Of a stretch of 64,000 nucleotides of DNA, positions 5,700 to 28,468 are shown piece by piece. How positions within the stretch are numbered: position 1 is the first letter of the stretch; every line of letters begins with the position of its first letter. The notes under the pieces are model-generated. The model did no database searches, had not been told where the DNA came from, and worked only from the letters and a program-made list of their open reading frames with translations. The DNA lies in NCBI GenBank assembly GCA_017882335.1, contig JADGPR010000006.1:5419-69418 (forward strand). The letters are read 5' to 3'. The position numbers and the translations under genes are program-made. The stretch comes from Bacteroidales bacterium (GTDB taxonomy: Bacteria > Bacteroidota > Bacteroidia > Bacteroidales > FEN-979).

Positions 5700-5707
5700 T
5701 ACTTTTG
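5700..5707 (+). promoter_or_regulatory. Bacteroidota-type -7 promoter box (TAnnTTTG) upstream of iorA
   Basis: TACTTTTG, 28 nt upstream of the ATG at 5735. Confidence 0.45.
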
Positions 5708-5734
5708 TCCATAATAAATAATTTTAATAGGATT

Positions 5735-7351
5735 ATGCAAAGACTTCTACTTCTGGGAGATGAAGCCATCGCTCAGGGAGCACTGGATGCCGGACTGTCG
5801 GGGATTTACGCCTACCCGGGAACGCCATCCACTGAAATCACTGAATTTGTTCAGTACTCAAAGCAAGCGAAACAGGATAAGATTCATTCAACATGGTCGG
5901 CAAATGAAAAGACCGCCATGGAATCTGCTCTTGGAATGTCCTATGCCGGCAAACGGTCCATGGTATGTATGAAGCATGTCGGACTGAATGTTGCGGCTGA
6001 TCCCTTTGTGAACTCAGCAATCACAGGTGCTAATGGGGGATTGATTATCGTGGCCGCCGATGATCCTTCCATGCACTCTTCCCAGAATGAACAGGATTCA
6101 CGGTTTTTTGGAAAATTTGCTATGGTGCCTATCCTTGAGCCGGTAAACCAGCAGGAAGCCTATGATATGGTTCACTATGGATTTGATTTTTCGGAACGTT
6201 ACAAAGTTCCCGTGATGATGCGGATCACCACCCGCCTGGCCCATTCCCGTGCCGGTGTGAAAAGGAAAGATCCCCGGAAAAGGAATGACCTGAAACTCCC
6301 GGAAAACCTCCAGCAGTTTGTCCTATTGCCTGCCCTTGCACGGAAAAGATACCGGAACCTTTTAAAGGCACAGGATTTCTTCGAACAGGAATCAGAAACA
6401 TCACCCTTTAATCAATTCATTGATGGCCCTGACAAATCTCTTGGGATCATTGTTTGTGGTATCGCCTATAATTATTTGATGGAGAATTATCCCGACCGGC
6501 ATGTTCCACATCCTGTTCTGAAAATCGGGCAGTATCCTTTGCCAAGGAAAATGATCGACCGGCTTTATTCGGAATGTAAGGAAATCCTTGTTCTCGAGGA
6601 TGGTTACCCCATCGTGGAAGAATCCCTGAAAGGATTGCTTGGTAAAGGATTGAAAATAAAAGGCCGGCTCGATGGAACCGTTCCCAGGGATGGTGAGCTG
6701 AACCCAAATATCGTCACGGTATCTCTGGGAATGAAAGACACCTATGGCTTGCCAGTTCCTTCACTGATGGTTGAACGTCCACCTTCATTGTGTTCAGGCT
6801 GCCCGCACATCGATTCATTCAAAGCGATAAACGAAGTTCTTGCAGTCTTGCCGAAAGGGCGTGTTTTCTCCGATATCGGTTGCTATACGCTGGGCGCTTT
6901 GAAACCCTACGAAGCCATCAACTCCTGTGTGGATATGGGCGCTTCGATCACGATGGCGAAAGGCGCGGCGGATGCCGGACTGATCCCTTCCGTTGCCGTT
7001 ATCGGCGACTCTACCTTTACCCATTCGGGAATGACAGGATTACTGGATGCCGTCAATGATAAATCGCCGATCACCATTTTTATCCTTGATAATGGCACTA
7101 CTGCCATGACCGGCGGCCAGGACTCACCGGCATTCGGAAAGATCGAAGATATATGTAAAGGAATGGGGGTGGAAGAGGGACATCTTCATGTACTCCGCCC
7201 GCTGAAGAAATTTCACGAAGAAAATGTTAAGATCATCAATGAAGAACTTGCCTATCCGGGGGTTTCGGTTATCATTCCGCGGCGGGAATGCATCGTAACC
7301 ATTGATAAACGTGTCAGGGAAAAATTCAAACAGGCAGAAACGGCCGGATAA
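5735..7351 (+). CDS. iorA: indolepyruvate:ferredoxin oxidoreductase, alpha subunit (TPP-dependent)
   Basis: N-terminus LLLGDEAIAQGALDAGL..YPGTPSTEI, Cys cluster LCSGCPH, and TPP-binding motif GDSTFTHSG. I prefer the ATG at 5735 to the upstream track start because a TACTTTTG box sits at 5700-5707. Confidence 0.85.
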   Translation: MQRLLLLGDEAIAQGALDAGLSGIYAYPGTPSTEITEFVQYSKQAKQDKIHSTWSANEKTAMESALGMSYAGKRSMVCMKHVGLNVAADPFVNSAITGANGGLIIVAADDPSMHSSQNEQDSRFFGKFAMVPILEPVNQQEAYDMVHYGFDFSERYKVPVMMRITTRLAHSRAGVKRKDPRKRNDLKLPENLQQFVLLPALARKRYRNLLKAQDFFEQESETSPFNQFIDGPDKSLGIIVCGIAYNYLMENYPDRHVPHPVLKIGQYPLPRKMIDRLYSECKEILVLEDGYPIVEESLKGLLGKGLKIKGRLDGTVPRDGELNPNIVTVSLGMKDTYGLPVPSLMVERPPSLCSGCPHIDSFKAINEVLAVLPKGRVFSDIGCYTLGALKPYEAINSCVDMGASITMAKGAADAGLIPSVAVIGDSTFTHSGMTGLLDAVNDKSPITIFILDNGTTAMTGGQDSPAFGKIEDICKGMGVEEGHLHVLRPLKKFHEENVKIINEELAYPGVSVIIPRRECIVTIDKRVREKFKQAETAG

Positions 7352-7406
7352 AAAATTTTGACAATTCCCAGATGTTTGAATACTAATCTCAGAATTGATT
7401 ATAAAA

Positions 7407-7994
7407 ATGAAAAGAGACATTATACTGGCCGGTGTAGGCGGCCAGGGAATTATATCCATCGCAGCCATCATCGGTACAGCCGCTCTTGAGCAAGGCCTTT
7501 TTCTTAAACAATCGGAAGTCCATGGAATGAGCCAGCGGGGAGGTGATGTACAATCCAACCTGAGGATTTCAGACAAGGAAATAGCTTCCGATTTAATTCC
7601 ATACGGAAAAGCCGACCTGATCATCTCTGTTGAGCCCCTGGAAGCTTTACGGTACCTGCCTTTACTCTCTCCCGATGGGTGGGTGATCACAAGTACCAAA
7701 CCTTTCATCAATATTCCGGAATATCCTCAGATGGACAAAGTAATGGATGAAATCCGGAAATTACCACATTATATTGCCTTGGATGCCGATGAAATTGCAA
7801 AGGAAATCGGGACATTAAAAGCAGCGAATATTGTGATCCTGGGCGCAGCTTCCCCTTTTCTTGATATGCAATATGAAAAGCTGGAAGATGCCATCCGTTT
7901 TATTTTCCGGAATAAGGGAGAGGAGGTGATCAAGAAAAATCTCCAGGCTTTAAAAGCCGGAAAGGATTTTACTGAAAGGCAAATGCATCCATAA
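7407..7994 (+). CDS. iorB: indolepyruvate:ferredoxin oxidoreductase, beta subunit
   Basis: MKRDIILAGVGGQGI.., about 195 aa, immediately downstream of iorA. Confidence 0.8.
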   Translation: MKRDIILAGVGGQGIISIAAIIGTAALEQGLFLKQSEVHGMSQRGGDVQSNLRISDKEIASDLIPYGKADLIISVEPLEALRYLPLLSPDGWVITSTKPFINIPEYPQMDKVMDEIRKLPHYIALDADEIAKEIGTLKAANIVILGAASPFLDMQYEKLEDAIRFIFRNKGEEVIKKNLQALKAGKDFTERQMHP

Positions 7995-8009: not shown

Positions 8010-8017
8010 TATCTTTG
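8010..8017 (+). promoter_or_regulatory. -7 promoter box (TAnnTTTG) upstream of the SPT-like operon
   Basis: TATCTTTG, 34 nt upstream of the ATG at 8051. Confidence 0.45.
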
Positions 8018-8050
8018 AATTTTAGCAACAGCGCCAAAAGAACATCATCT

Positions 8051-9238
8051 ATGAGGATATTACAACGGAAAACATCACATTATACTGAACCGCAGAAAGT
8101 TGAAAGAATGGGTCTTTATCCCTTCTTCAGGGTCATTGAATCCGAGCAGGACACTACGGTAACCATGAATGGTAAAAAGGTTCTGATGTTCGGCTCCAAC
8201 AGCTATATGGGGCTTACCAATCATCCCAAGATCAAGGAAGCATCCATAAAAGCAATCGAAAAATACGGAAGTGGCTGTGCCGGTTCCCGCTTTCTTAACG
8301 GAACCCTCGACATTCATATTGAACTTGAGCGAAAGTTGGCCGAATATGTCAATAAGGATGCGGCATTGGTGTTCAGTACAGGATTCCAGGTTAATCTTGG
8401 CGTGATTCCTACCGTTACCGGAAGGAATGATTATATCCTTATCGACGAACTCGACCATGCTTCCATCTTTGAAGCTACCCGGTTGTCGTTCGCAAAGGTA
8501 TTGAAATTCCGCCACAACGACATGCATTCCCTTGAACGCCTGCTGAAACAATGTGAACCCGGTAAGATCAAACTCATCGTGGTTGACGGGATCTACAGCA
8601 TGGAAGGAGATATTGCCGACCTGCCCGGGATCGTGAATCTGGCTGAGAAATATGAGGCCACCGTAATGGTAGATGATGCCCATGCGATCGGCGTGATCGG
8701 GGAACATGGCTCAGGAACTGCATCCCATTTCGGCCTGACCGATAAAGTCGACCTCATTATGGGTACTTTCAGCAAATCGCTGGCATCATTAGGAGGTTTT
8801 ATTGCCAGTGATTTTGATACGATCAATTACATAAAGCACCATTCCCGCACGCTGATTTTCAGCGCTAGTATGACACCTGCATCAGCAGCAACAGTCCTCG
8901 CAGCAATCGATATCATCAAAGCCGAACCCGAAAGAATGGTCAATCTCTGGGAGGTCACCCACTATGCCATCGATAATTTCAAACGGATGGGTTTTGATAT
9001 CGGGAAGAGTGAAACACCGATCATCCCGCTTTATATCAGAGACAACCTGAAGACCCTCAAGCTGACACGAATGTTGCTCGATGAAGGAATCTTTGTAAAC
9101 CCTGTCGTCTCACCGGCTGTCAGCAAAGATTCTACACTGATCCGCTTTTCTCTCATGGCTACCCATACCAAAGCACAGGTCGACATTGCCCTCGACAAAT
9201 TTAATAAACTGGGGAAAAAGCTAGGCATCATTCATTGA
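8051..9238 (+). CDS. alpha-oxoamine synthase (PLP), serine-palmitoyltransferase-like
   Basis: Motifs YPFFRVIES..V.M.GKKVLMFGSNSYMGLT, GSRFLNGT, DGIYSMEGD, VDDAHA, and the PLP lysine in GTFSKSLASLGGF. FSKS and GSRFLNGT are SPT/ALAS-like rather than Kbl-like. I prefer the ATG at 8051 because a TATCTTTG box at 8010-8017 overlaps the track start. Confidence 0.7.
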   Translation: MRILQRKTSHYTEPQKVERMGLYPFFRVIESEQDTTVTMNGKKVLMFGSNSYMGLTNHPKIKEASIKAIEKYGSGCAGSRFLNGTLDIHIELERKLAEYVNKDAALVFSTGFQVNLGVIPTVTGRNDYILIDELDHASIFEATRLSFAKVLKFRHNDMHSLERLLKQCEPGKIKLIVVDGIYSMEGDIADLPGIVNLAEKYEATVMVDDAHAIGVIGEHGSGTASHFGLTDKVDLIMGTFSKSLASLGGFIASDFDTINYIKHHSRTLIFSASMTPASAATVLAAIDIIKAEPERMVNLWEVTHYAIDNFKRMGFDIGKSETPIIPLYIRDNLKTLKLTRMLLDEGIFVNPVVSPAVSKDSTLIRFSLMATHTKAQVDIALDKFNKLGKKLGIIH

Positions 9239-9256
9239 TAAAATCCAGGAAAACAT

Positions 9257-10384
9257 ATGGAAATCTCAATCAAAAAGGTCGCCACACGGAAAGACCTCCG
9301 GAAGTTTATTAATTATCCTAATTCCCTATACAAAGGCAATAAATTCTTTTGCCCACCCATGCTCCTTGATGATAAGAATACTCTTTCGAGGACAAAAAAT
9401 CCTGCCTTCGATTTCTGTGAAGCTGAATATTTCCTCGCCTATCGCGGGAAAGACCTCGTCGGGCGGATTGCAGGGATCATCAATCATAAAGCCAACGAAC
9501 GATGGAAGGAGAAACTGGTGCGGTTCGGATGGATTGATTTTATTGATGATCCGCAGGTTTCAGCGAAACTGATCGATACTGTTATCGCATGGGGAAAGGA
9601 AAAAGGGATGAATGGCATCCATGGTCCGCTCGGGTTTTCCGATATGGATAACGAAGGGATGCTGATCAAAGGATTCGAAGAAGAAGCCAGCCTGGCATCC
9701 ATCTATAATTATGCGTATTATCCTGAACACATGGTACAGCTTGGCTTTGAAAAGGCAGCCGATTGGGTTCAGTACGAATTTGAGGTACCGCAGGAGATTC
9801 CGGATAAAGTGGATCGGGTATCGAAACTGGTCCAGGAGAAATATAAGTTGCGTTTAGTACAGGCAAAAAAATCCAAAGACCTCCTTCCTTATGCCGGAAA
9901 AATGTTTGTTATGCTGAACAAGGCTTTTGATGAACTCTACGGGTTTACGACCCTTTCGCAGAAACAGATGGACATGTATGTGAAGACTTACTTTAGCTTC
10001 ATCCGCCCGGAATATGTTTCTTGTGTGATCGATGAACAAGATGAAATTGTGGGCTTTGGTATCTCGATGCCATCCCTGACAAAGGCCCTGCAAAAAAGCC
10101 ACGGCAAATTATTCCCCTTCGGATTCATCTACTTACTCCGCGCCATGAAAAAGAATGATACGATCGACATGTATCTGAATGCCGTCAGGCCTGATTATCA
10201 TGGGAAAGGTATAAATGCCCTCTATTATAATGAAATGCATAAAGCATACATCCGCAATCATATCACCCGTGCCGTAACCATGCCTCAGCTGGAAGACAAT
10301 GCCAAAGCGCTTACCATCTGGAAAAATTTTAATGGCCGCCAGCACATTACCCGGCGTTGCTGGATAAAGCATTTTGAACATTGA
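9257..10384 (+). CDS. double-GNAT-fold acyltransferase-like protein (paralog A)
   Basis: 375 aa. A GNAT acyl-CoA-binding signature lies near the C-terminus (VRPDYHGKGINALYYNEM). The protein aligns end to end with the 11443-12582 product. Confidence 0.55.
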   Translation: MEISIKKVATRKDLRKFINYPNSLYKGNKFFCPPMLLDDKNTLSRTKNPAFDFCEAEYFLAYRGKDLVGRIAGIINHKANERWKEKLVRFGWIDFIDDPQVSAKLIDTVIAWGKEKGMNGIHGPLGFSDMDNEGMLIKGFEEEASLASIYNYAYYPEHMVQLGFEKAADWVQYEFEVPQEIPDKVDRVSKLVQEKYKLRLVQAKKSKDLLPYAGKMFVMLNKAFDELYGFTTLSQKQMDMYVKTYFSFIRPEYVSCVIDEQDEIVGFGISMPSLTKALQKSHGKLFPFGFIYLLRAMKKNDTIDMYLNAVRPDYHGKGINALYYNEMHKAYIRNHITRAVTMPQLEDNAKALTIWKNFNGRQHITRRCWIKHFEH

Positions 10385-10438
10385 AAAATAGGTGTTTGCA
10401 GTATCTTGCAGGACCTGCGGAATAGAATTACGATAAAC

Positions 10439-11443
10439 ATGGGAAATGTACTGATCACCGGTGCCAGTGGTTTCATTGGCAGTTTTCTGGTTGAAGAGGG
10501 ACTGAAAAGGGATTACCATGTATATGCCGGTATCCGAAAGACCAGTTCCAGGAAATACCTCAAGGATCCCCGGATCCACTTTTTGGAAATGGACTTTTCT
10601 TCCGTGGATACAATCGTAGCAACTCTTGAAGAATGTAAAAACCAGGGTATCCGGTTTCAATATATCATCCACAGCGCCGGGATTACCAAAGCCGGAAAGA
10701 AAGAGGATTATTTCAGGGTAAACGCACAAAACACACAGAATTTCATCCAGGCACTGGCAAAGACCGGCATGGTACCGGAAAAATTTATTTATATGAGCAG
10801 CCTGGCTGCGCATGGTCCGGGCGATCCTGCAACCATGCTCCCGGTCATGCTCTCTGATACTCCTAAACCCATTGAATTGTACGGTAAAAGCAAACTGGAG
10901 GCTGAAAAGTACATCCTGTCACTGGATTCTTTCCCCTGGTTGATTCTCCGTCCCACCGGTGTTTATGGCCCCCGGGAAAAAGACTATTATATTTTTTTTA
11001 AAACCATGAGCCGCGGACTGGAAACCTACATTGGATACCGGCAGCAGATCCTTACTTTCATATATGTAAAGGATTTGGTTCGGTTGATCTTTGATGCACT
11101 GATATCTCCCATTGTCATGAGATCCTATTTTGTTTCCGATGGCAGGGAATACGATACCAAAACCTTTGCCGCCATCACCAAAAAGATCCTTCAGAAAAAA
11201 ACCATAAAAATAACAGTCCCTTCGGTTATTGTAAAGCAACTTGCATTCGGACTCGAAAAATTATTCGGACTATGGGGTACCATTCCCACATTGAATACCG
11301 ATAAATACAAGGTTTTGAGGAGTACCAACTGGCGCTGCGAAACGGAACCTTTGCAGCGTGACTTCGGGTTCATTGCCGAATATGATCTGGAAAAAGGCAT
11401 CAGCGAGACAATCAATTGGTACAAAACTGAACATTGGCTATAA
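10439..11443 (+). CDS. NAD(P)-dependent SDR (epimerase/dehydratase-type) reductase
   Basis: Rossmann motif ITGASGFIGSFLV and catalytic YGKSK (YxxxK). I prefer the ATG at 10439. Its stop overlaps the next start (TAATG). Confidence 0.75.
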   Translation: MGNVLITGASGFIGSFLVEEGLKRDYHVYAGIRKTSSRKYLKDPRIHFLEMDFSSVDTIVATLEECKNQGIRFQYIIHSAGITKAGKKEDYFRVNAQNTQNFIQALAKTGMVPEKFIYMSSLAAHGPGDPATMLPVMLSDTPKPIELYGKSKLEAEKYILSLDSFPWLILRPTGVYGPREKDYYIFFKTMSRGLETYIGYRQQILTFIYVKDLVRLIFDALISPIVMRSYFVSDGREYDTKTFAAITKKILQKKTIKITVPSVIVKQLAFGLEKLFGLWGTIPTLNTDKYKVLRSTNWRCETEPLQRDFGFIAEYDLEKGISETINWYKTEHWL

Positions 11444-12582
11444 TGGATACAGAAATTCATAAAGTCACTTCCCGTAAGGAACTGAAAAAGTTCATCCGGT
11501 TTCAGCTGGAGTTATATAAAGGAAATTCCTACTGGTGTCCTCCCCTGATCTTTGATGAACTGAACACGCTCTCCAAAGACCAGAATCCGGCATTCGAATA
11601 TTGTGAAGCCGAATACTGGCTAGCTTACCGGGATAACAAAATTGTAGGCAGGATCGCGGGTATCATCAATAACAGGGCCAACAAGCGGTGGAATGAAAAT
11701 TTTGTACGATTCGGATGGATCGATTTTATCGATGACCTTGAAGTTTCGACAAAACTCATTGAAACGGTGGCTGAATGGGGTAGGAGCAAAGGGATGACCA
11801 GGATACAGGGGCCACTGGGTTTTACCGATATGGACCCGGAAGGAATGCTGATCGAAGGCTTTGAAGAACTTTCAAGCCTGGCTGCGATCTACAATTACCC
11901 CTATTACCCGGAGCACATGGTTAACCTTGGATTTGCGAAAGGCGCCGATTGGGTGCATTTCATTATGAATGTTCCCCCGGTAATCCCCGAAAAGGTTTCC
12001 CGCTCAGCAGCGATTGCAAAGGAAAAATATCATCTCCGGACGGTACCGGCAAAAAAAGCAAAAGATTTTCTCCCTTACACAAAAAAAATGTTCCGGATGA
12101 TGAACGAGGCATTCGACGACCTATACGGCTACGCAGCCATCGGTGAAAAACAAATTGACCTCTATACCAAACAATATTTTGGATTTATCCGGCCAGAATA
12201 TATTTCAATGGTTATCGACGACAAGGATGATGTCATTGCCTTTGGCATTACGATACCGGACCTGACGCATGCACTTCAGAAATGTAACGGAAGGCTTTTT
12301 CCATTCGGATTTATTCATCTATACCGTGCCTTGAAAAAGAATGATACCATTCACATGTACCTGATCGGCGTTCGCCCCGATTACCAAGGAAGAGGAGCTC
12401 TTGCCCTGGTCTATGATGAACTACAAAAGGCTTATCTGGAGCATGGTATCGTCAAAGCAACTACGCATCCACAACTGGAGAATAACCTGAAAGCCATTTC
12501 GATTTGGAAGAATTATGATTCCCGGATCTATTTACGTCGCCGTTGTTGGGAGAAACAGTTTCAGGGCCTTCCTGTTACCTGA
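11443..12582 (+). CDS. double-GNAT-fold acyltransferase-like protein (paralog B)
   Basis: About 380 aa. By eye, more than half of aligned positions match paralog A (e.g. NPAFEYCEAEYWLAYR..IVGRIAGIIN, VRFGWIDFIDD, GPLGFTDMD.EGML, VRPDYQGRGALALVY). Confidence 0.55.
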   Translation: MDTEIHKVTSRKELKKFIRFQLELYKGNSYWCPPLIFDELNTLSKDQNPAFEYCEAEYWLAYRDNKIVGRIAGIINNRANKRWNENFVRFGWIDFIDDLEVSTKLIETVAEWGRSKGMTRIQGPLGFTDMDPEGMLIEGFEELSSLAAIYNYPYYPEHMVNLGFAKGADWVHFIMNVPPVIPEKVSRSAAIAKEKYHLRTVPAKKAKDFLPYTKKMFRMMNEAFDDLYGYAAIGEKQIDLYTKQYFGFIRPEYISMVIDDKDDVIAFGITIPDLTHALQKCNGRLFPFGFIHLYRALKKNDTIHMYLIGVRPDYQGRGALALVYDELQKAYLEHGIVKATTHPQLENNLKAISIWKNYDSRIYLRRRCWEKQFQGLPVT

Positions 12583-13705: not shown

Positions 13706-14449
13706 TTACAGGATGGACTTGTAATGATTCCGGATCCTCATCAGGTCGTACAAAACCCTGAACCCATAAGTCCAGCTTATCTTCGACCCTCCCTTGTCAA
13801 TCCATGATTCCACCGGGACTTCCACCACAACTTCCTCAATTCCATCCCTGCCATATATCCCGATAATCCTCGCCAGGATTTCAACATCAAATAGCCATCG
13901 GGTTATGAAAGGTTTTTCAAATATACGGGCTGCCAGCGGTTGTGTGAATAGTTTTGCCCCGCATTGTGTGTCATATACCATCAGGTGAAGAATGCCGGAG
14001 ATGAAGGTGGCGATTATCCTGCCGATGAGGTGACGGTAAAGTTTCCGTTCGATCCTGACGCCAAGAATGGCAACCCGCGACCCGAATGCGAATTCAAGTG
14101 TAGGTTTTTCCTGTATGCGGGAACGCAACCGGAAGGATTCATCCAGCCGGGTTGAAAGATCCGCATCAAAAAAACCGAAATACCTGCATGTAAAATGCTG
14201 CAAGGCTGAAATCATCCCGGCTTGAATGGCTCCGGCCTTTCCTTTGTTTTGAAGTAAAGTAGTCACAAGGATACGGCCAGCGAATTTTTCATGAAGGGAT
14301 TCGAGCATTTTTTCCGTGTCATCGGTACTTCCGTCATTAACCAGGCAAAATGAAGTTTCCGGATCTTTTTGGAGAAATTCCAGGAATTCATCCACCGGAA
14401 ACCTGTTGGCTTCATTATAAAAAGGAATGATGATACAAATTGAATTCAT
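13706..14449 (-). CDS. family-2 glycosyltransferase (polyprenyl-phosphate sugar synthase-like)
   Basis: Motifs IIIPFYNE, NDGSTDDT, and DxD (FFDADL). 247 aa with no transmembrane tail. Confidence 0.75.
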   Translation of the reverse strand: MNSICIIIPFYNEANRFPVDEFLEFLQKDPETSFCLVNDGSTDDTEKMLESLHEKFAGRILVTTLLQNKGKAGAIQAGMISALQHFTCRYFGFFDADLSTRLDESFRLRSRIQEKPTLEFAFGSRVAILGVRIERKLYRHLIGRIIATFISGILHLMVYDTQCGAKLFTQPLAARIFEKPFITRWLFDVEILARIIGIYGRDGIEEVVVEVPVESWIDKGGSKISWTYGFRVLYDLMRIRNHYKSIL

Positions 14450-14459
14450 GGTTATCCTT

Positions 14460-16016
14460 TTAATGCAGTTTCCAGGCAGAACAGATCTCGCTGTTCTGTA
14501 TGGTTATGGAAAATATTTTTTTCTCCTTCGGATACGGATAATCCCATGGATGCCAACGGTAATCGGTGATAAAATAATCCGCCTGGTCATCGGCTTCCAC
14601 ATATAGGATCCGCTTCCTGTCTTCTGGTTTCAGGATGTACGAATTAAACTCGCCGGGCAGGTTGGCAACCTTGATTTTCAGTATAGGTGAACGGTCACGA
14701 GCAACAATATATTCCAGTGCCTGCTTGTAAGAAGTACCCCAGTAGTCGAGTTCAAATGTTTTCCGCAGGTACTGGTCCTTCTTCGATAATAAAATATTGA
14801 AGTAAATATCCTCAAACGGATGACTTTTTATCATGGTAAATCCGGTGCCGGCAAAGGAAACGATCAACAACATTGAAATCGCCACTTTCGGCAGGTCACC
14901 TGAGAAAATCCTGGCATTCATAAGGGATGATAAGCCATAGACTGCAAGAAGAAGGAAAGCCGGGTAAATAAAATACATCTGCCTCCATCCGTCATACAAC
15001 ACGGAATGCAGTATGATTACAGCCATAACAGGTCCTGCGAAACATATCAGGTAGATCAGTTGATTACGATCATTCGTTTGCCTGATAAAATCAAGAGGCT
15101 TCCTGAAAAAGCGAAGGAAAAGGAAGATGAAACCTGCTATTCCAAGCAGCAGGTAAACAACCGGAGTCGTCAGTCCGAACCATTGCGGGAAGTATTTCCA
15201 GCCAACAGCGGAAGCCCTTACAAAATCCCCATTCATCAGGATATTATTGTCCCACCTGAATTTCGACATATTTGAAAAAGCGATCCTGAAATGCCCTGCA
15301 GGATCTTGCCATAACCAGGGCCAGCTTAGAACCACCACAGTGGCAGTCAGAACAAGATAAACTATGTAATTTATGAACGTTTTTTCCCGGTCCTGTTCAC
15401 TGATCATATCGATTAGTACCAATACAGTCACCACAACCGGGATTACAATTCCCATGATCCGGATATTGATCAGAAGGCCGCTCAGGATCCCGAAAAGAAC
15501 AAAATGCCGGATTTTTTTATCCCGGAAGGCAATGACACAGACCAGGAAACAGAGGATGAACATGCACATAAAGGGAATGTCCTTGCTGTTAAAGAAGGAT
15601 TGGGCATAGATCCTCGGGCTGAGCAAAAGCATGAGATAGCCGCATACGGCAAGAGGTTTATTCCGGTAAAGAATCCAAATCAGAAGATAGAATGCAAAAG
15701 CACTCAAAAGGAACAAAAGATGGATGGTAAAATGACGCATCCGATAAATGTCATGGGTATCATTCATCCCAAGTGTTTTTTCGAAAAAGATCAATGGGAG
15801 TTCAACAGCCACGCCATAGTCCCGGTTTTTGAAATCATTCAGCGTTTTATCTCCCCTGAAAACGTAATCCCAGGATCGCTGGCCGATCTCCCGTTGGTTC
15901 GGTTCATCCCATGCGATCCCGTAATTCCCGTAAACAACGAATCCAATTACAAGGCTTGTAACAAGCAGGAGTAAGGCTACCAGGTGATTCTTCAAGAACG
16001 GAATAATAATTTTCAT
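14460..16016 (-). CDS. polytopic membrane glycosyltransferase, GT39/ArnT-PMT-like (GT-C fold)
   Basis: 518 aa with at least 10 hydrophobic spans, an N-terminal loop with an acidic motif (AWDEPNQREIG), and a soluble C-terminal domain. It is adjacent to the GT2 gene. Confidence 0.6.
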   Translation of the reverse strand: MKIIIPFLKNHLVALLLLVTSLVIGFVVYGNYGIAWDEPNQREIGQRSWDYVFRGDKTLNDFKNRDYGVAVELPLIFFEKTLGMNDTHDIYRMRHFTIHLLFLLSAFAFYLLIWILYRNKPLAVCGYLMLLLSPRIYAQSFFNSKDIPFMCMFILCFLVCVIAFRDKKIRHFVLFGILSGLLINIRIMGIVIPVVVTVLVLIDMISEQDREKTFINYIVYLVLTATVVVLSWPWLWQDPAGHFRIAFSNMSKFRWDNNILMNGDFVRASAVGWKYFPQWFGLTTPVVYLLLGIAGFIFLFLRFFRKPLDFIRQTNDRNQLIYLICFAGPVMAVIILHSVLYDGWRQMYFIYPAFLLLAVYGLSSLMNARIFSGDLPKVAISMLLIVSFAGTGFTMIKSHPFEDIYFNILLSKKDQYLRKTFELDYWGTSYKQALEYIVARDRSPILKIKVANLPGEFNSYILKPEDRKRILYVEADDQADYFITDYRWHPWDYPYPKEKKIFSITIQNSEICSAWKLH

Positions 16017-25840: not shown

Positions 25841-26842
25841 GTGAAAATTACCCGATTTACCCTGCTGCTTCTTACAATTATTGTTTTTTCTGGATGCAAC
25901 TGGCACAAAAACCGCTTGCAGATTGATGTTTCCAGTGTCACGATAGCCGATGTTAAGATCAATCGCTACGATCAGGACCTGTTCAAGGTCCCCGTTACAG
26001 ATCTTAAAGCCGGCCTTGAACGGATTCAGCATGCGTATTATTTTTTTCTGGGAACAGACCTGAATGATACGAAAAAACTTGACGATATGAAAGCCTACCT
26101 GGAGAATCCCAGGAATATTGATTTTCAGAAAGCAAGTGAAATCCGGTTCAGCGATCTTTCCAAGGTCGAAAAAGACCTTACCGAAGCCTTCCGTCACTGG
26201 AAGTTCTATTTTCCTGAAGTAAAGATTCCAAGGGTTTACTCGTATATCTCCGGTGGGGATTATACCAGTCCCGTTCAACTGGCGGACAGTGTTCTGATCA
26301 TCGCACTGGATACCTATCTCGGTAAGGATTTCAAACCCTATTTCACCGATGGGCTTGCACTCTATAAGGCCGAACGGATGACGGAAGATCATATCGTTCC
26401 CGATTGTGCCAGGGAGATTGTAAATGACATATACCCTGGACCGACCGCACCCATGACCTTGTTGGGAGGAATGGTGGAAGCCGGGAAACGGCAATACCTG
26501 GTTGATGCCCTGATCCCGGATGTCCCCGGTTACCTGAAGATGGATTATACCAAGGAGCAATACAGTTGGGTTGAGAAGAATGAAACACATGTTTGGGCAG
26601 CCCTGGTTGAGAACCGCCTGCTTTATTCTTCCGACGGCCAGTATTTCCGGATGTTTCTTGCCGACGGGCCTTATACCATGGAATTCTCCAAAGATTCCCC
26701 TCCGCGACTGGGCGAATGGATCGGTTTGCAGATTATCCGTTCCTATATGCAAAAAAATCCGGATATTACCCTGAAGATGATGATGCAGGAAACCGATGCA
26801 CAAAAAATCCTCACCTTATCAGGATACAAGCCTGAAAAATAG
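25841..26842 (+). CDS. gldB: gliding-motility lipoprotein GldB-like
   Basis: GTG start with a lipobox (LTIIVFSGCN). 333 aa with GldB/DUF2268-like blocks (YISGGDYTSPV...IIALDTYLGKDFKPY). Confidence 0.65.
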   Translation: MKITRFTLLLLTIIVFSGCNWHKNRLQIDVSSVTIADVKINRYDQDLFKVPVTDLKAGLERIQHAYYFFLGTDLNDTKKLDDMKAYLENPRNIDFQKASEIRFSDLSKVEKDLTEAFRHWKFYFPEVKIPRVYSYISGGDYTSPVQLADSVLIIALDTYLGKDFKPYFTDGLALYKAERMTEDHIVPDCAREIVNDIYPGPTAPMTLLGGMVEAGKRQYLVDALIPDVPGYLKMDYTKEQYSWVEKNETHVWAALVENRLLYSSDGQYFRMFLADGPYTMEFSKDSPPRLGEWIGLQIIRSYMQKNPDITLKMMMQETDAQKILTLSGYKPEK

Positions 26843-26929
26843 AATTGTTAAAAAAAAGTTTTCCAAAACGTATTACCTTTTCGTTTTTTCCGGATTAAGG
26901 GAATAGATTACTCAACCTTATCCGGTTTT

Positions 26930-28468
26930 ATGTTAGTCAGGACATTTGGAAGCGCCTTATACGGTATTCACGCCATAACGATCACGATTGAAGTCTGCAT
27001 CGACCAGGGGATCAATTTTTTCATGGTCGGGCTGCCCGATAATGCAGTGAAAGAGAGCCATCAGCGGATCGATTCCGCCCTCCGGAATACGGGATACAAG
27101 ATTCCCGGGAAGAAAATCGTCATTAACATGGCACCGGCTGATATCCGCAAGGAAGGCTCATCGTATGATCTCCCCATTGCCGTGGCGATCCTTGCCGCCG
27201 ATAAGATCGTGAAGATAGAAAAACTGGAATCATTCATGATCCTCGGGGAACTGTCATTGGATGGCAGCCTTCAGCCGATGAAAGGAGCGCTTCCCATCGC
27301 GATCGAGGCAACCCGAAAAGGATTTAAGGGGATCATTCTTCCACTACAAAATGCCAAAGAGGCTGCCATCGTTGGGAAACTGGAAGTCTATGGCGTAGAA
27401 AATATCCAACAGGTCATAGATTTCCTCAATGATACCGGGAAACTTGAACGGGTGATCGTCGATACCAGTAAAGAATTTTTTTCGAAACTAAATGATTATG
27501 AATATGATTTTGCAGATGTCAGGGGGCAGGAGAATATCAAAAGAGCGTTGGAAATTGCAGCAGCAGGGGGACACAACGTTATTTTGATTGGGCCGCCGGG
27601 GGCTGGGAAGACGATGTTGGCAAAAAGGCTGCCTTCGATCCTGCCACCCCTGAATTTGCAAGAAGCGCTTGAAACCACTAAGATCCATTCGGTAGCAGGC
27701 AAAATGTTACACAACCATTCGATAGTATCCGTAAGGCCATTCCGGTCGCCACACCATACCATCAGCGATGTGGCCCTGGTAGGAGGAGGAGGGGTACCTC
27801 AGCCGGGGGAGATCTCTATGGCCCATAACGGGGTATTGTTCCTGGATGAACTTCCCGAATTTAAACGAACGGTGCTGGAAGTTCTACGTCAGCCATTGGA
27901 AGACCGGGTGGTGACGATCTCCAGGGCAAAATTTACAGTTGATTTTCCGGCGAGTTTTATGCTCATAGCTGCCATGAACCCTTGTCCTTGCGGTTATTAT
28001 AACCATCCGAAGATAGAATGTAAGTGCGGGGCAGGAAATGTTCAGAAGTACCTGAGCAAGATTTCAGGCCCCCTCTTCGACCGGATCGATATTCATGTGG
28101 AGGTTGTACCGGTACCGTTTCGTGAACTGAGTGATGCACGTCCTTCTGAGAAAAGCGAGATCGTACGCTCAAGGGTTATCGAGGCACGGCAGATCCAGGA
28201 AAAACGGTTTGAAGGAATGCCCGGTATCTATTGCAATGCCCAAATGTCGGTAAAAATTTTACGGAAGGTTTGCCATCTCGATGATGCCTCAAATCTCCTT
28301 CTGAAGAATGCAATGGAAAAACTCGGTCTTTCTGCCCGTGCCTTTGACCGCATCCTGAAAGTTTCGAGAACGATCGCAGATATCGATAAGCAACCCGACA
28401 TCCGGGCGGAGCATCTCGCTGAAGCAATACAGTATCGAAGTTTGGATCGCGACAATTGGGGCAAGTGA
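26930..28468 (+). CDS. YifB/ComM family Mg-chelatase-like AAA+ ATPase
   Basis: An N-terminal Lon-protease-like domain, Walker A GPPGAGKTMLA, and GVLFLDELPEF. 512 aa. Confidence 0.9.
   Translation: MLVRTFGSALYGIHAITITIEVCIDQGINFFMVGLPDNAVKESHQRIDSALRNTGYKIPGKKIVINMAPADIRKEGSSYDLPIAVAILAADKIVKIEKLESFMILGELSLDGSLQPMKGALPIAIEATRKGFKGIILPLQNAKEAAIVGKLEVYGVENIQQVIDFLNDTGKLERVIVDTSKEFFSKLNDYEYDFADVRGQENIKRALEIAAAGGHNVILIGPPGAGKTMLAKRLPSILPPLNLQEALETTKIHSVAGKMLHNHSIVSVRPFRSPHHTISDVALVGGGGVPQPGEISMAHNGVLFLDELPEFKRTVLEVLRQPLEDRVVTISRAKFTVDFPASFMLIAAMNPCPCGYYNHPKIECKCGAGNVQKYLSKISGPLFDRIDIHVEVVPVPFRELSDARPSEKSEIVRSRVIEARQIQEKRFEGMPGIYCNAQMSVKILRKVCHLDDASNLLLKNAMEKLGLSARAFDRILKVSRTIADIDKQPDIRAEHLAEAIQYRSLDRDNWGK

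Follow-up and report, generated by a model that had tools for sequence, protein, structure and literature searches.

A predicted ceramide backbone operon with a duplicated bCerS-type acyltransferase in an uncultured member of the Bacteroidales

We analysed a four-gene cluster (8010-12582) in a 64,000-nucleotide (nt) stretch of contig JADGPR010000006.1 from a Bacteroidales bacterium; "the window" below means this whole stretch. The cluster codes for an alpha-oxoamine synthase (AOS) of the serine palmitoyltransferase (Spt) type, two paralogous acyltransferases with tandem GNAT domains (GNAT1 and GNAT2) and an extended short-chain dehydrogenase/reductase (SDR), and we predict that it is very probably an operon for the ceramide (dihydroceramide) backbone of a type already known from bacteria. 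A sequence-only reading of the same DNA had favored a sphingoid-type aminolipid pathway, with sulfonolipids as a hedge and a threonine-catabolic enzyme pair as the alternative. The sphingoid proposal is supported by the assignment of the genes to the Spt, bCerS-type GNAT and CerR-type SDR families, and the other two are taken up where the rival explanations are weighed (see below).

Layout of the four-gene cluster

The features of the cluster are as follows (aa, amino acids):

8010..8017, + strand: TATCTTTG, putative promoter box of the Bacteroidetes -7 type (TAnnTTTG), within the 56 nt that separate the iorB stop from the spt ATG
8051..9238, + strand: spt, predicted serine palmitoyltransferase, 395 aa from ATG (NF047600 SerpalmtaseCFB); the reading frame is open from TTG 8015
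9257..10384, + strand: GNAT1, bCerS-type tandem-GNAT acyltransferase copy 1, 375 aa, with homology to YghO
10439..11443, + strand: SDR, CerR-type extended SDR reductase, 334 aa from ATG (PF01370), with the NAD(P) motif GASGFIGS and the catalytic motif YGKSK
11443..12582, + strand: GNAT2, bCerS-type tandem-GNAT acyltransferase copy 2, 379 aa from ATG, paralogous to GNAT1

A check of open reading frames and motifs agrees with the earlier description of four same-strand genes behind one TAnnTTTG box, with spacers of 18 nt between spt and GNAT1 (9239-9256) and 54 nt between GNAT1 and SDR (10385-10438), followed by a TAATG in which the SDR stop TAA overlaps the GNAT2 ATG. The motifs that it had listed (GSRFLNGT, GTFSKSLASLGGF and YGKSK) are likewise all present in the translations. 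Between 5400 and 12800 the + strand carries just two copies of TAnnTTTG, one ahead of iorA at 5700 and the other at 8010, and there is none inside the four-gene cluster on that strand; the window as a whole has 46 such boxes, both strands counted. The copy at 8010 (TATCTTTG) is the putative promoter of the cluster. Since the NF047600 model begins to align at residue 15 of the frame when this is started at TTG 8015, and the box lies at 8010, ATG 8051 is most likely the true start of spt. A scan for sigma-70 promoters returned sites no more frequent than in shuffled sequence, and a terminator scan found none 3′ of GNAT2.

Families of the three pathway enzymes

The AOS scores 679.7 bits against the NCBIfam equivalog NF047600 (serine palmitoyltransferase, CFB group), above the cut-off of 640, which is passed in one of 14 control genomes, that of Bacteroides thetaiotaomicron; it falls below the cut-offs of the NCBIfam models for Kbl, BioF, ALAS and proteobacterial Spt. 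Its closest solved relative is the Spt of Sphingobacterium multivorum (3A2B, 8GUH; 498 bits), which is colinear with it over 385 residues and displays the same active-site motifs, including the pattern GTFSK...IFSAS. Within this pattern, GTFSKSLASLGGF holds the lysine that binds pyridoxal 5′-phosphate (PLP), and the FSAS found 30 residues on aligns with that of the S. multivorum enzyme; its alanine occupies the position at which the cysteate acyltransferase SulA has Lys281, 30 residues after the PLP lysine, and Spt has Ala (Radka et al., PMC9304779). The AOS is also the reciprocal best match of the Spt of Escherichia coli BL21 (39% identity, E 8e-91). Taken together, these features mark the first gene as a predicted true Spt, which would condense L-serine with a long-chain acyl thioester, as the sequence-only reading had supposed. 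Whereas the S. multivorum enzyme is known as a single enzyme, the window Spt is part of an operon.

Profile searches say little about the two acyltransferases: Pfam gives a weak Acetyltransf_1 match that covers the C-terminal half only, a scan of NCBIfam yields no match, neither database holds a model specific to their family, and a sequence search of the PDB with GNAT1 returns nothing meaningful. An AlphaFold2 model of GNAT1 built with 32 homologues (predicted local distance difference test score, pLDDT, 92; predicted template-modelling score, pTM, 0.89) consists of two GNAT-like halves, and the PDB entries that match it best are tandem GNATs, namely the glucosamine N-acetyltransferase 5KF1, MAB_4324, the clavulanate tandem GNAT, VipF and MshD, at a TM-score of ~0.6 and 10-14% identity. 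Therefore, the earlier label of a double GNAT is correct for GNAT1 as modelled, which appears to have no close solved relative; the paralogy of the two copies is equally clear from their 61% identity over 374 residues. Both match the YghO protein of E. coli BL21 over nearly their full length: GNAT1 at 26% over 341 aa (E 4e-39, residues 3-336 of 375) and GNAT2 at 27% over 377 aa (E 9e-42, residues 4-373 of 379). The yghO gene (ECD_02850) has been listed with the Caulobacter acyl-CoA N-acyltransferase CC_1154 (Padilla-Gomez et al., PMC9386255), in keeping with the proposed likeness to bCerS. CCNA_01212 has been identified as CerS and CCNA_01222 as CerR, and knockouts of their homologues in Bacteroides fragilis accumulate 3-ketodihydrosphingosine (3-KDS) and keto-dihydroceramide (PMC10865984; bioRxiv 10.1101/2023.05.23.541633). 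Two fusions recovered by a search of representative proteins also bear on this family. One (P0383) joins an AUR1-type PAP2_3 membrane domain to a bCerS-like unit and is a further hint, of the Rosetta-stone kind, of a link to sphingolipid chemistry and to a head-group step; the other (P0258, 784 aa) carries two bCerS-like units in tandem; it shows that a pair of them can function within a single polypeptide in a different lineage and, as a hint of the same kind, points to paired acyltransferase units.

The SDR matches the Pfam Epimerase domain (PF01370, 4.5e-27) and is the reciprocal best match of the BL21 epi product (ECD_RS14835; 26% over 325 aa, E 4e-29); when epi is searched against the whole source genome, the window SDR scores 101 bits and the next protein 55 bits. 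The epimerase/dehydrogenase epi (ECD_02852) has been listed with Caulobacter CC_1164 (PMC9386255), and the description of this protein as a CerR-like NAD(P) reductase is borne out by that correspondence.

From these assignments we propose a three-step pathway. Spt would join serine and a long-chain acyl thioester to give 3-ketosphinganine, the amine of which would be N-acylated by a soluble tandem GNAT of the YghO/bCerS type, and the CerR-type extended SDR would then reduce the 3-keto group with NAD(P)H to yield dihydroceramide. The placement of N-acylation before keto reduction is drawn by analogy from cerR knockouts in Caulobacter (PMC11087976) and B. fragilis (bioRxiv 10.1101/2023.05.23.541633). 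The operon has no gene for a dedicated acyl carrier protein (ACP) or acyl-ACP synthetase, and the BL21 proteins AcpR and AasR find only weak or housekeeping-type matches in the source genome; hence, the acyl donors are presumably drawn from the general, housekeeping pools of acyl-ACP or acyl-CoA.

Conservation of the operon and comparison with known loci

We compared 79 named loci of metagenome-assembled genomes (MAGs) from a GNAT1-seeded search and used each protein as a query against a single, evenly drawn set of 201 Bacteroidia genomes. The order iorA-iorB-spt-GNAT-SDR recurs in ~55 of the 79 loci, usually with the second GNAT next, and one 5.27-Mb MAG has the order spt-GNAT1-GNAT2-SDR. Five more distant loci labelled Bacteroidales or Lutibacter (L068-L073) lack ior genes and have spt-GNAT-SDR with just one GNAT. 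In total, a GNAT adjoins spt and SDR in ~60 loci and in six further sampled genomes, the latter with contiguous Spt-GNAT-SDR and drawn from four other Bacteroidia families. The association extends beyond this class: an Ignavibacteria MAG has the SDR beside Spt with the GNAT 2 kb off, and an Aminicenantes MAG has an SDR-GNAT pair and a Spt-SDR pair. SDR homologues occur in 11 of the 201 sampled genomes, nine of which are Spt-positive, against 15 of 201 with an Spt-like gene overall; being nearly confined to Spt-bearing genomes, the SDR is tied to Spt, as expected of CerR. MAGs of gut-type Bacteroidales (Bacteroides, Muribaculaceae, Barnesiella and Prevotellaceae) have one GNAT homologue standing alone (42-49% identity; two GNATs in the Prevotellaceae MAG) and one SDR homologue (40-47%) on another contig, in agreement with a published observation that known Bacteroidota producers have these genes dispersed (PMC11334938). 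A homologue search seeded with a Bacteroides-type protein named B. coprosuis, B. graminisolvens and Phocaeicola vulgatus and did not name B. fragilis.

The genes immediately upstream of the cluster are two indolepyruvate:ferredoxin oxidoreductase subunits:

5705-7351, + strand: iorA, indolepyruvate:ferredoxin oxidoreductase subunit (IOR_alpha 536 bits, below the cut-off of 650.9)
7395-7994, + strand: iorB, indolepyruvate:ferredoxin oxidoreductase subunit (NF005324 309 bits, above the cut-off)

They precede spt on the same strand in the ~55 loci of the family and are absent from the distant Spt-GNAT-SDR loci. A supply of acyl-CoA primers by iorAB is conceivable; we treat the pair as genomic context, with no implication that it belongs to the pathway. 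Downstream, the - strand (13706-16016) codes for a GT2 glycosyltransferase and a PMT_2/ArnT-like polytopic glycosyltransferase; their genes are not kept beside the operon in the relative OY820914 and are therefore probably not part of it.

Among the closest known systems is that of Caulobacter crescentus, with Spt CC_1162, bCerS CCNA_01212/CC_1154 and CerR CCNA_01222/CC_1164 (PMC11087976 and PMC9386255, summarising Stankeviciute et al. 2022 and Olea-Ozuna et al. 2021). Both systems feature a PLP-dependent Spt, a soluble GNAT-type N-acyltransferase and an extended-SDR reductase with the same three-step logic, but the window locus has no dedicated ACP, acyl-ACP synthetase or LptF2/G2/C2 paralogues, and its genes form a compact operon with a duplicated acyltransferase. 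The E. coli BL21 locus (NC_012971 2989282-2997066) comprises yghO (380 aa), a divergent fatty acyl-AMP ligase, SDR, ACP and spt, and then lptG and lptF paralogues, matching the published arrangement for BL21(DE3) of yghO, aasR-epi-acpR-spt and lptG2-lptF2 as three units (Padilla-Gomez et al. 2022, PMC9386255). YghO is colinear with GNAT1 and GNAT2, and epi and spt correspond reciprocally to the window SDR and Spt, at the distance typical of our comparison with proteobacterial enzymes, for which the E. coli B homologues were measured (26-27% for the GNATs and SDR and 39% for Spt). Particular to BL21 are the divergent orientation of yghO, the specialised acyl-ACP donor and the adjacent export genes; likewise, the ACP and synthetase that belong to the proteobacterial five-gene locus (spt, acpR, aasR, epi and aca) have no counterpart in the window operon. 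B. fragilis, from the same phylum, has the same three families (Spt, CerS BF9343_4218 and CerR BF9343_4240), the likeness being by family and traced via homologues; in it and other gut Bacteroidales the genes are dispersed, whereas the window has them in one operon with an extra acyltransferase. The sulfonolipid enzymes CapA/Cys, SulA/CapB/CFAT and CapC/KCR (PMC9304779, PMC11211663) run a parallel course of AOS condensation, keto reduction and N-acylation, but the window AOS lacks the Lys281 signature of SulA and its reductase is a CerR-type extended SDR. Thus, compactness, the lack of an ACP and synthetase, the iorAB neighbor and the duplicated acyltransferase set the window operon apart from known ceramide systems.

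The extra acyltransferase and competing explanations

In a maximum-likelihood tree of 106 family members, a GNAT1 clade (44 entries) is sister to a GNAT2 clade (31 entries), and the two belong to a well-supported group at family level, with the single-copy Spt-GNAT-SDR lineages and the proteins of gut Bacteroidales below them; accordingly, the tree places the duplication within this Bacteroidales family, to which it is specific. Both copies are under purifying selection, with within-genus dN/dS of ~0.05-0.13 for GNAT1 and 0.06-0.09 for GNAT2 (some dS values being near saturation), and every invariant residue of the family alignment is kept in both. GNAT2 evolves faster (60-66% identity across the family vs 72-77% for GNAT1) and does not follow the SDR in roughly a dozen loci. 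One of the genomes concerned (G018, with locus L023; 98% complete) has no GNAT2 anywhere and keeps Spt-GNAT1-SDR, SulA and a third paralogue of the acyltransferases (GNAT3). The fixed differences between the two clades number four (N320L, M327L, F358Y and T365R), all in the C-terminal GNAT half, and are therefore too few to infer a changed substrate. We conclude that GNAT2 is in all likelihood a functional but dispensable specialist. It may be specialised for an acyl-chain class, a long-chain base or another acceptor, or for pairing with GNAT1 as a heteromer; most likely, we infer, the two copies split N-acylation between them, for example by acyl-chain type or long-chain base.

The source genome also encodes a SulA/CapB orthologue on another contig (C101:2600-3853, + strand), which scores 572 bits to the Alistipes finegoldii SulA 7U7H and carries the diagnostic lysine (IYAKS); the organism is likely to produce both sulfonolipids and sphingolipids. 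No acyltransferase or reductase gene lies beside it. The gene 3′ of it encodes a membrane protein of 450 aa, the N-terminus of which is very basic. In one sampled genome (G174, C3:207852-211755) an Spt gene (+ strand, 675 bits, over the cut-off) and a SulA-like gene (- strand) are convergent and 1.5 kb apart. SulA-like genes are nearly universal both among relatives (29 of 31) and among the sampled Bacteroidia (182 of 201 genomes, at 59-68% identity), for which reason a phyletic test of SulA against GNAT2 is uninformative within the family. GNAT3 (contig C73:3511-4707, - strand; 398 aa) is ~25% identical to both GNAT1 and GNAT2. It is divergent from an LptF/LptG-family permease gene, with glycosyltransferases next, and its distance from the spt operon is 15-25 kb in several relatives. 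Apart from the copy adjacent to GNAT3, the source genome has one weakly similar LptF/G-family copy; a role for the adjacent copy as a sphingolipid-specific paralogue of the Caulobacter kind finds no support, two copies being compatible with housekeeping LptF and LptG. GNAT3 orthologues are present in 118 of the 201 genomes, comprising 115 of 182 SulA-positive and three of 19 SulA-negative ones (raw counts, uncorrected for phylogeny), and are never adjacent to SulA in genomes that have both on one contig. GNAT1-like proteins (36-42% identity) accompany SulA, with no Spt, CerR-like SDR or GNAT3, in several families, as in the following sampled genomes:

f22: G046, G092, G167, G225
f26: G050, G096, G169, G199, G227
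f24: G048, G094
f75: G195, G224

As described in PMC9304779 and PMC11211663, the verified sulfonolipid enzymes are cysteate synthase, cysteate acyltransferase (CFAT/SulA) and a reductase, and no N-acyltransferase is named there. Given this gap and the co-distribution of GNATs and SulA, the YghO-family GNATs are reasonable candidates for the missing sulfonolipid (capnine) N-acyltransferase, which we offer as a lead and not as a result. In its widest form, which we consider doubtful, the YghO/bCerS family of the Bacteroidia would have diversified repeatedly across amino-lipid bases, one branch N-acylating capnine to yield sulfobacin-type sulfonolipids; GNAT2, the GNAT3 type or the GNAT1-like proteins of the SulA-bearing families devoid of Spt may represent that branch. 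Were this true, the three GNAT paralogues of the present genome would divide among themselves what its two condensing enzymes (Spt and SulA) produce.

A narrower version, in which GNAT2 (or GNAT1) is itself the sulfonolipid N-acyltransferase acting on the capnine or 3-ketocapnine that derives from SulA, so that the operon serves two amino-lipid pathways, strikes us as distinctly improbable. The isolated SulA gene and the short list of verified enzymes would suit it, as would the several Spt- and CerR-negative, SulA-positive Bacteroidia families in which GNAT1-like proteins (36-47% identity) are the sole YghO-family members. However, GNAT2 arose by duplication within one family and sits inside the spt operon, G018 dispenses with it while retaining SulA, and GNAT3 is an equally good and far more widespread candidate.

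Several observations weigh against the ceramide prediction itself. The link of the GNATs to the validated CCNA_01212 and BF9343_4218 runs through YghO as a bridge at 26-27% identity, and when YghO is searched against the whole source genome it is about equidistant from GNAT2 (139 bits), GNAT1 (130 bits) and GNAT3 (129 bits), which establishes membership of the family and not strict orthology with one copy. The YghO family comprises 11,093 clusters at 50% identity, and many genomes devoid of Spt have GNAT1-like proteins at 36-47% identity, so that membership by itself does not fix the substrate. Caulobacter CerR has been reported to be periplasmic (PMC11087976); the N-terminus of the window SDR (MGNVLITGASGFIGS) begins with the Rossmann motif and by inspection has no evident signal peptide, a feature in which BL21 epi resembles it. 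No AUR1-type PAP2_3 head-group enzyme was found in the source genome. Transcript evidence is weak. Four soil metatranscriptome runs yield short contigs with 95-100% matches to spt and GNAT1 (window 8380-10378), and one of 170 nt covers the spt stop and the GNAT1 start with zero mismatches, as would result from expression and co-transcription of the two genes in situ by this or a closely related strain; these contigs are few and short, with a depth of ~2-4 and possible DNA carry-over, and none was seen over SDR or GNAT2 in the four runs. The DNA runs that contain the stretch are permafrost, peat and soil metagenomes.

A further alternative is a non-ceramide N-acylated amino lipid, with GNATs that acylate another amine or an SDR that uses a sugar nucleotide, and a merely positional link to Spt. 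The size of the YghO family, most of which is uncharacterised, and the lack of a specific Pfam or NCBIfam model for it are compatible with this, as are the best NCBIfam matches of the SDR, which are to models of the sugar epimerase and HpnA type, with scores well short of the cut-offs. We regard it as very unlikely because the three families are linked in E. coli B, Caulobacter (from the literature), Bacteroidia, Ignavibacteria and Aminicenantes, the SDR is nearly limited to Spt-bearing genomes, and B. fragilis knockouts of the homologous families yield the expected sphingolipid intermediates (bioRxiv 10.1101/2023.05.23.541633).

A capnine/sulfobacin operon with a cysteate acyltransferase (SulA/CapB) as its AOS, the hedge of the sequence-only reading, is barely credible. 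The sulfonolipid pathway likewise has the AOS fold and the logic of an AOS plus a reductase (PMC9304779), but the window enzyme scores 223-230 bits to the SulA/CFAT structures 7U7H and 28EH against 498 bits to the Spt 3A2B, the alanine of its FSAS replaces the essential Lys281, and the genome has its own lysine-bearing SulA. Moreover, the known ketocapnine reductases are short-chain dehydrogenases distinct from the extended SDR of the window. A Kbl/threonine-dehydrogenase pair for threonine catabolism, formed by the AOS and SDR, can be dismissed as next to impossible: its sole attraction is the set of secondary AOS matches to Kbl models, which reach 400-415 bits (400.6 against a cut-off of 460 and 319.4 against 493 for two of these models), whereas the enzyme is under the Kbl and BioF cut-offs and over that of Spt, a genuine pair of Kbl genes resides on contig C4 (609 and 561 bits, cut-off 460), and neither GNAT would be accounted for. 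The Spt score, the alanine signature and the separate Kbl and SulA genes thus lead us to reject both proposals, and the refutation tests that the sequence-only reading set itself do not overturn it. On contig C4 (24243-29262, - strand), the two Kbl-passing paralogues flank a gene weakly resembling a fatty acyl-AMP ligase (25905-27476), an arrangement that is unusual for threonine catabolism.

The ceramide prediction, therefore, amounts to a known pathway correctly annotated, plus one extra, family-specific acyltransferase gene. It would extend the known Spt-bCerS-CerR ceramide pathway to abundant uncultured Bacteroidales of peat, permafrost and lakes. Unlike those of gut Bacteroides, the three pathway genes of the window make up one compact operon, which is expressible as a single unit. 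The presence of a conserved extra acyltransferase and of SulA in the same genome makes this organism a convenient case for addressing the acyl-chain and base specificity of bacterial ceramide synthases, as well as which enzyme N-acylates capnine, and it is the second acyltransferase copy and the sulfonolipid lead that most merit experiment.

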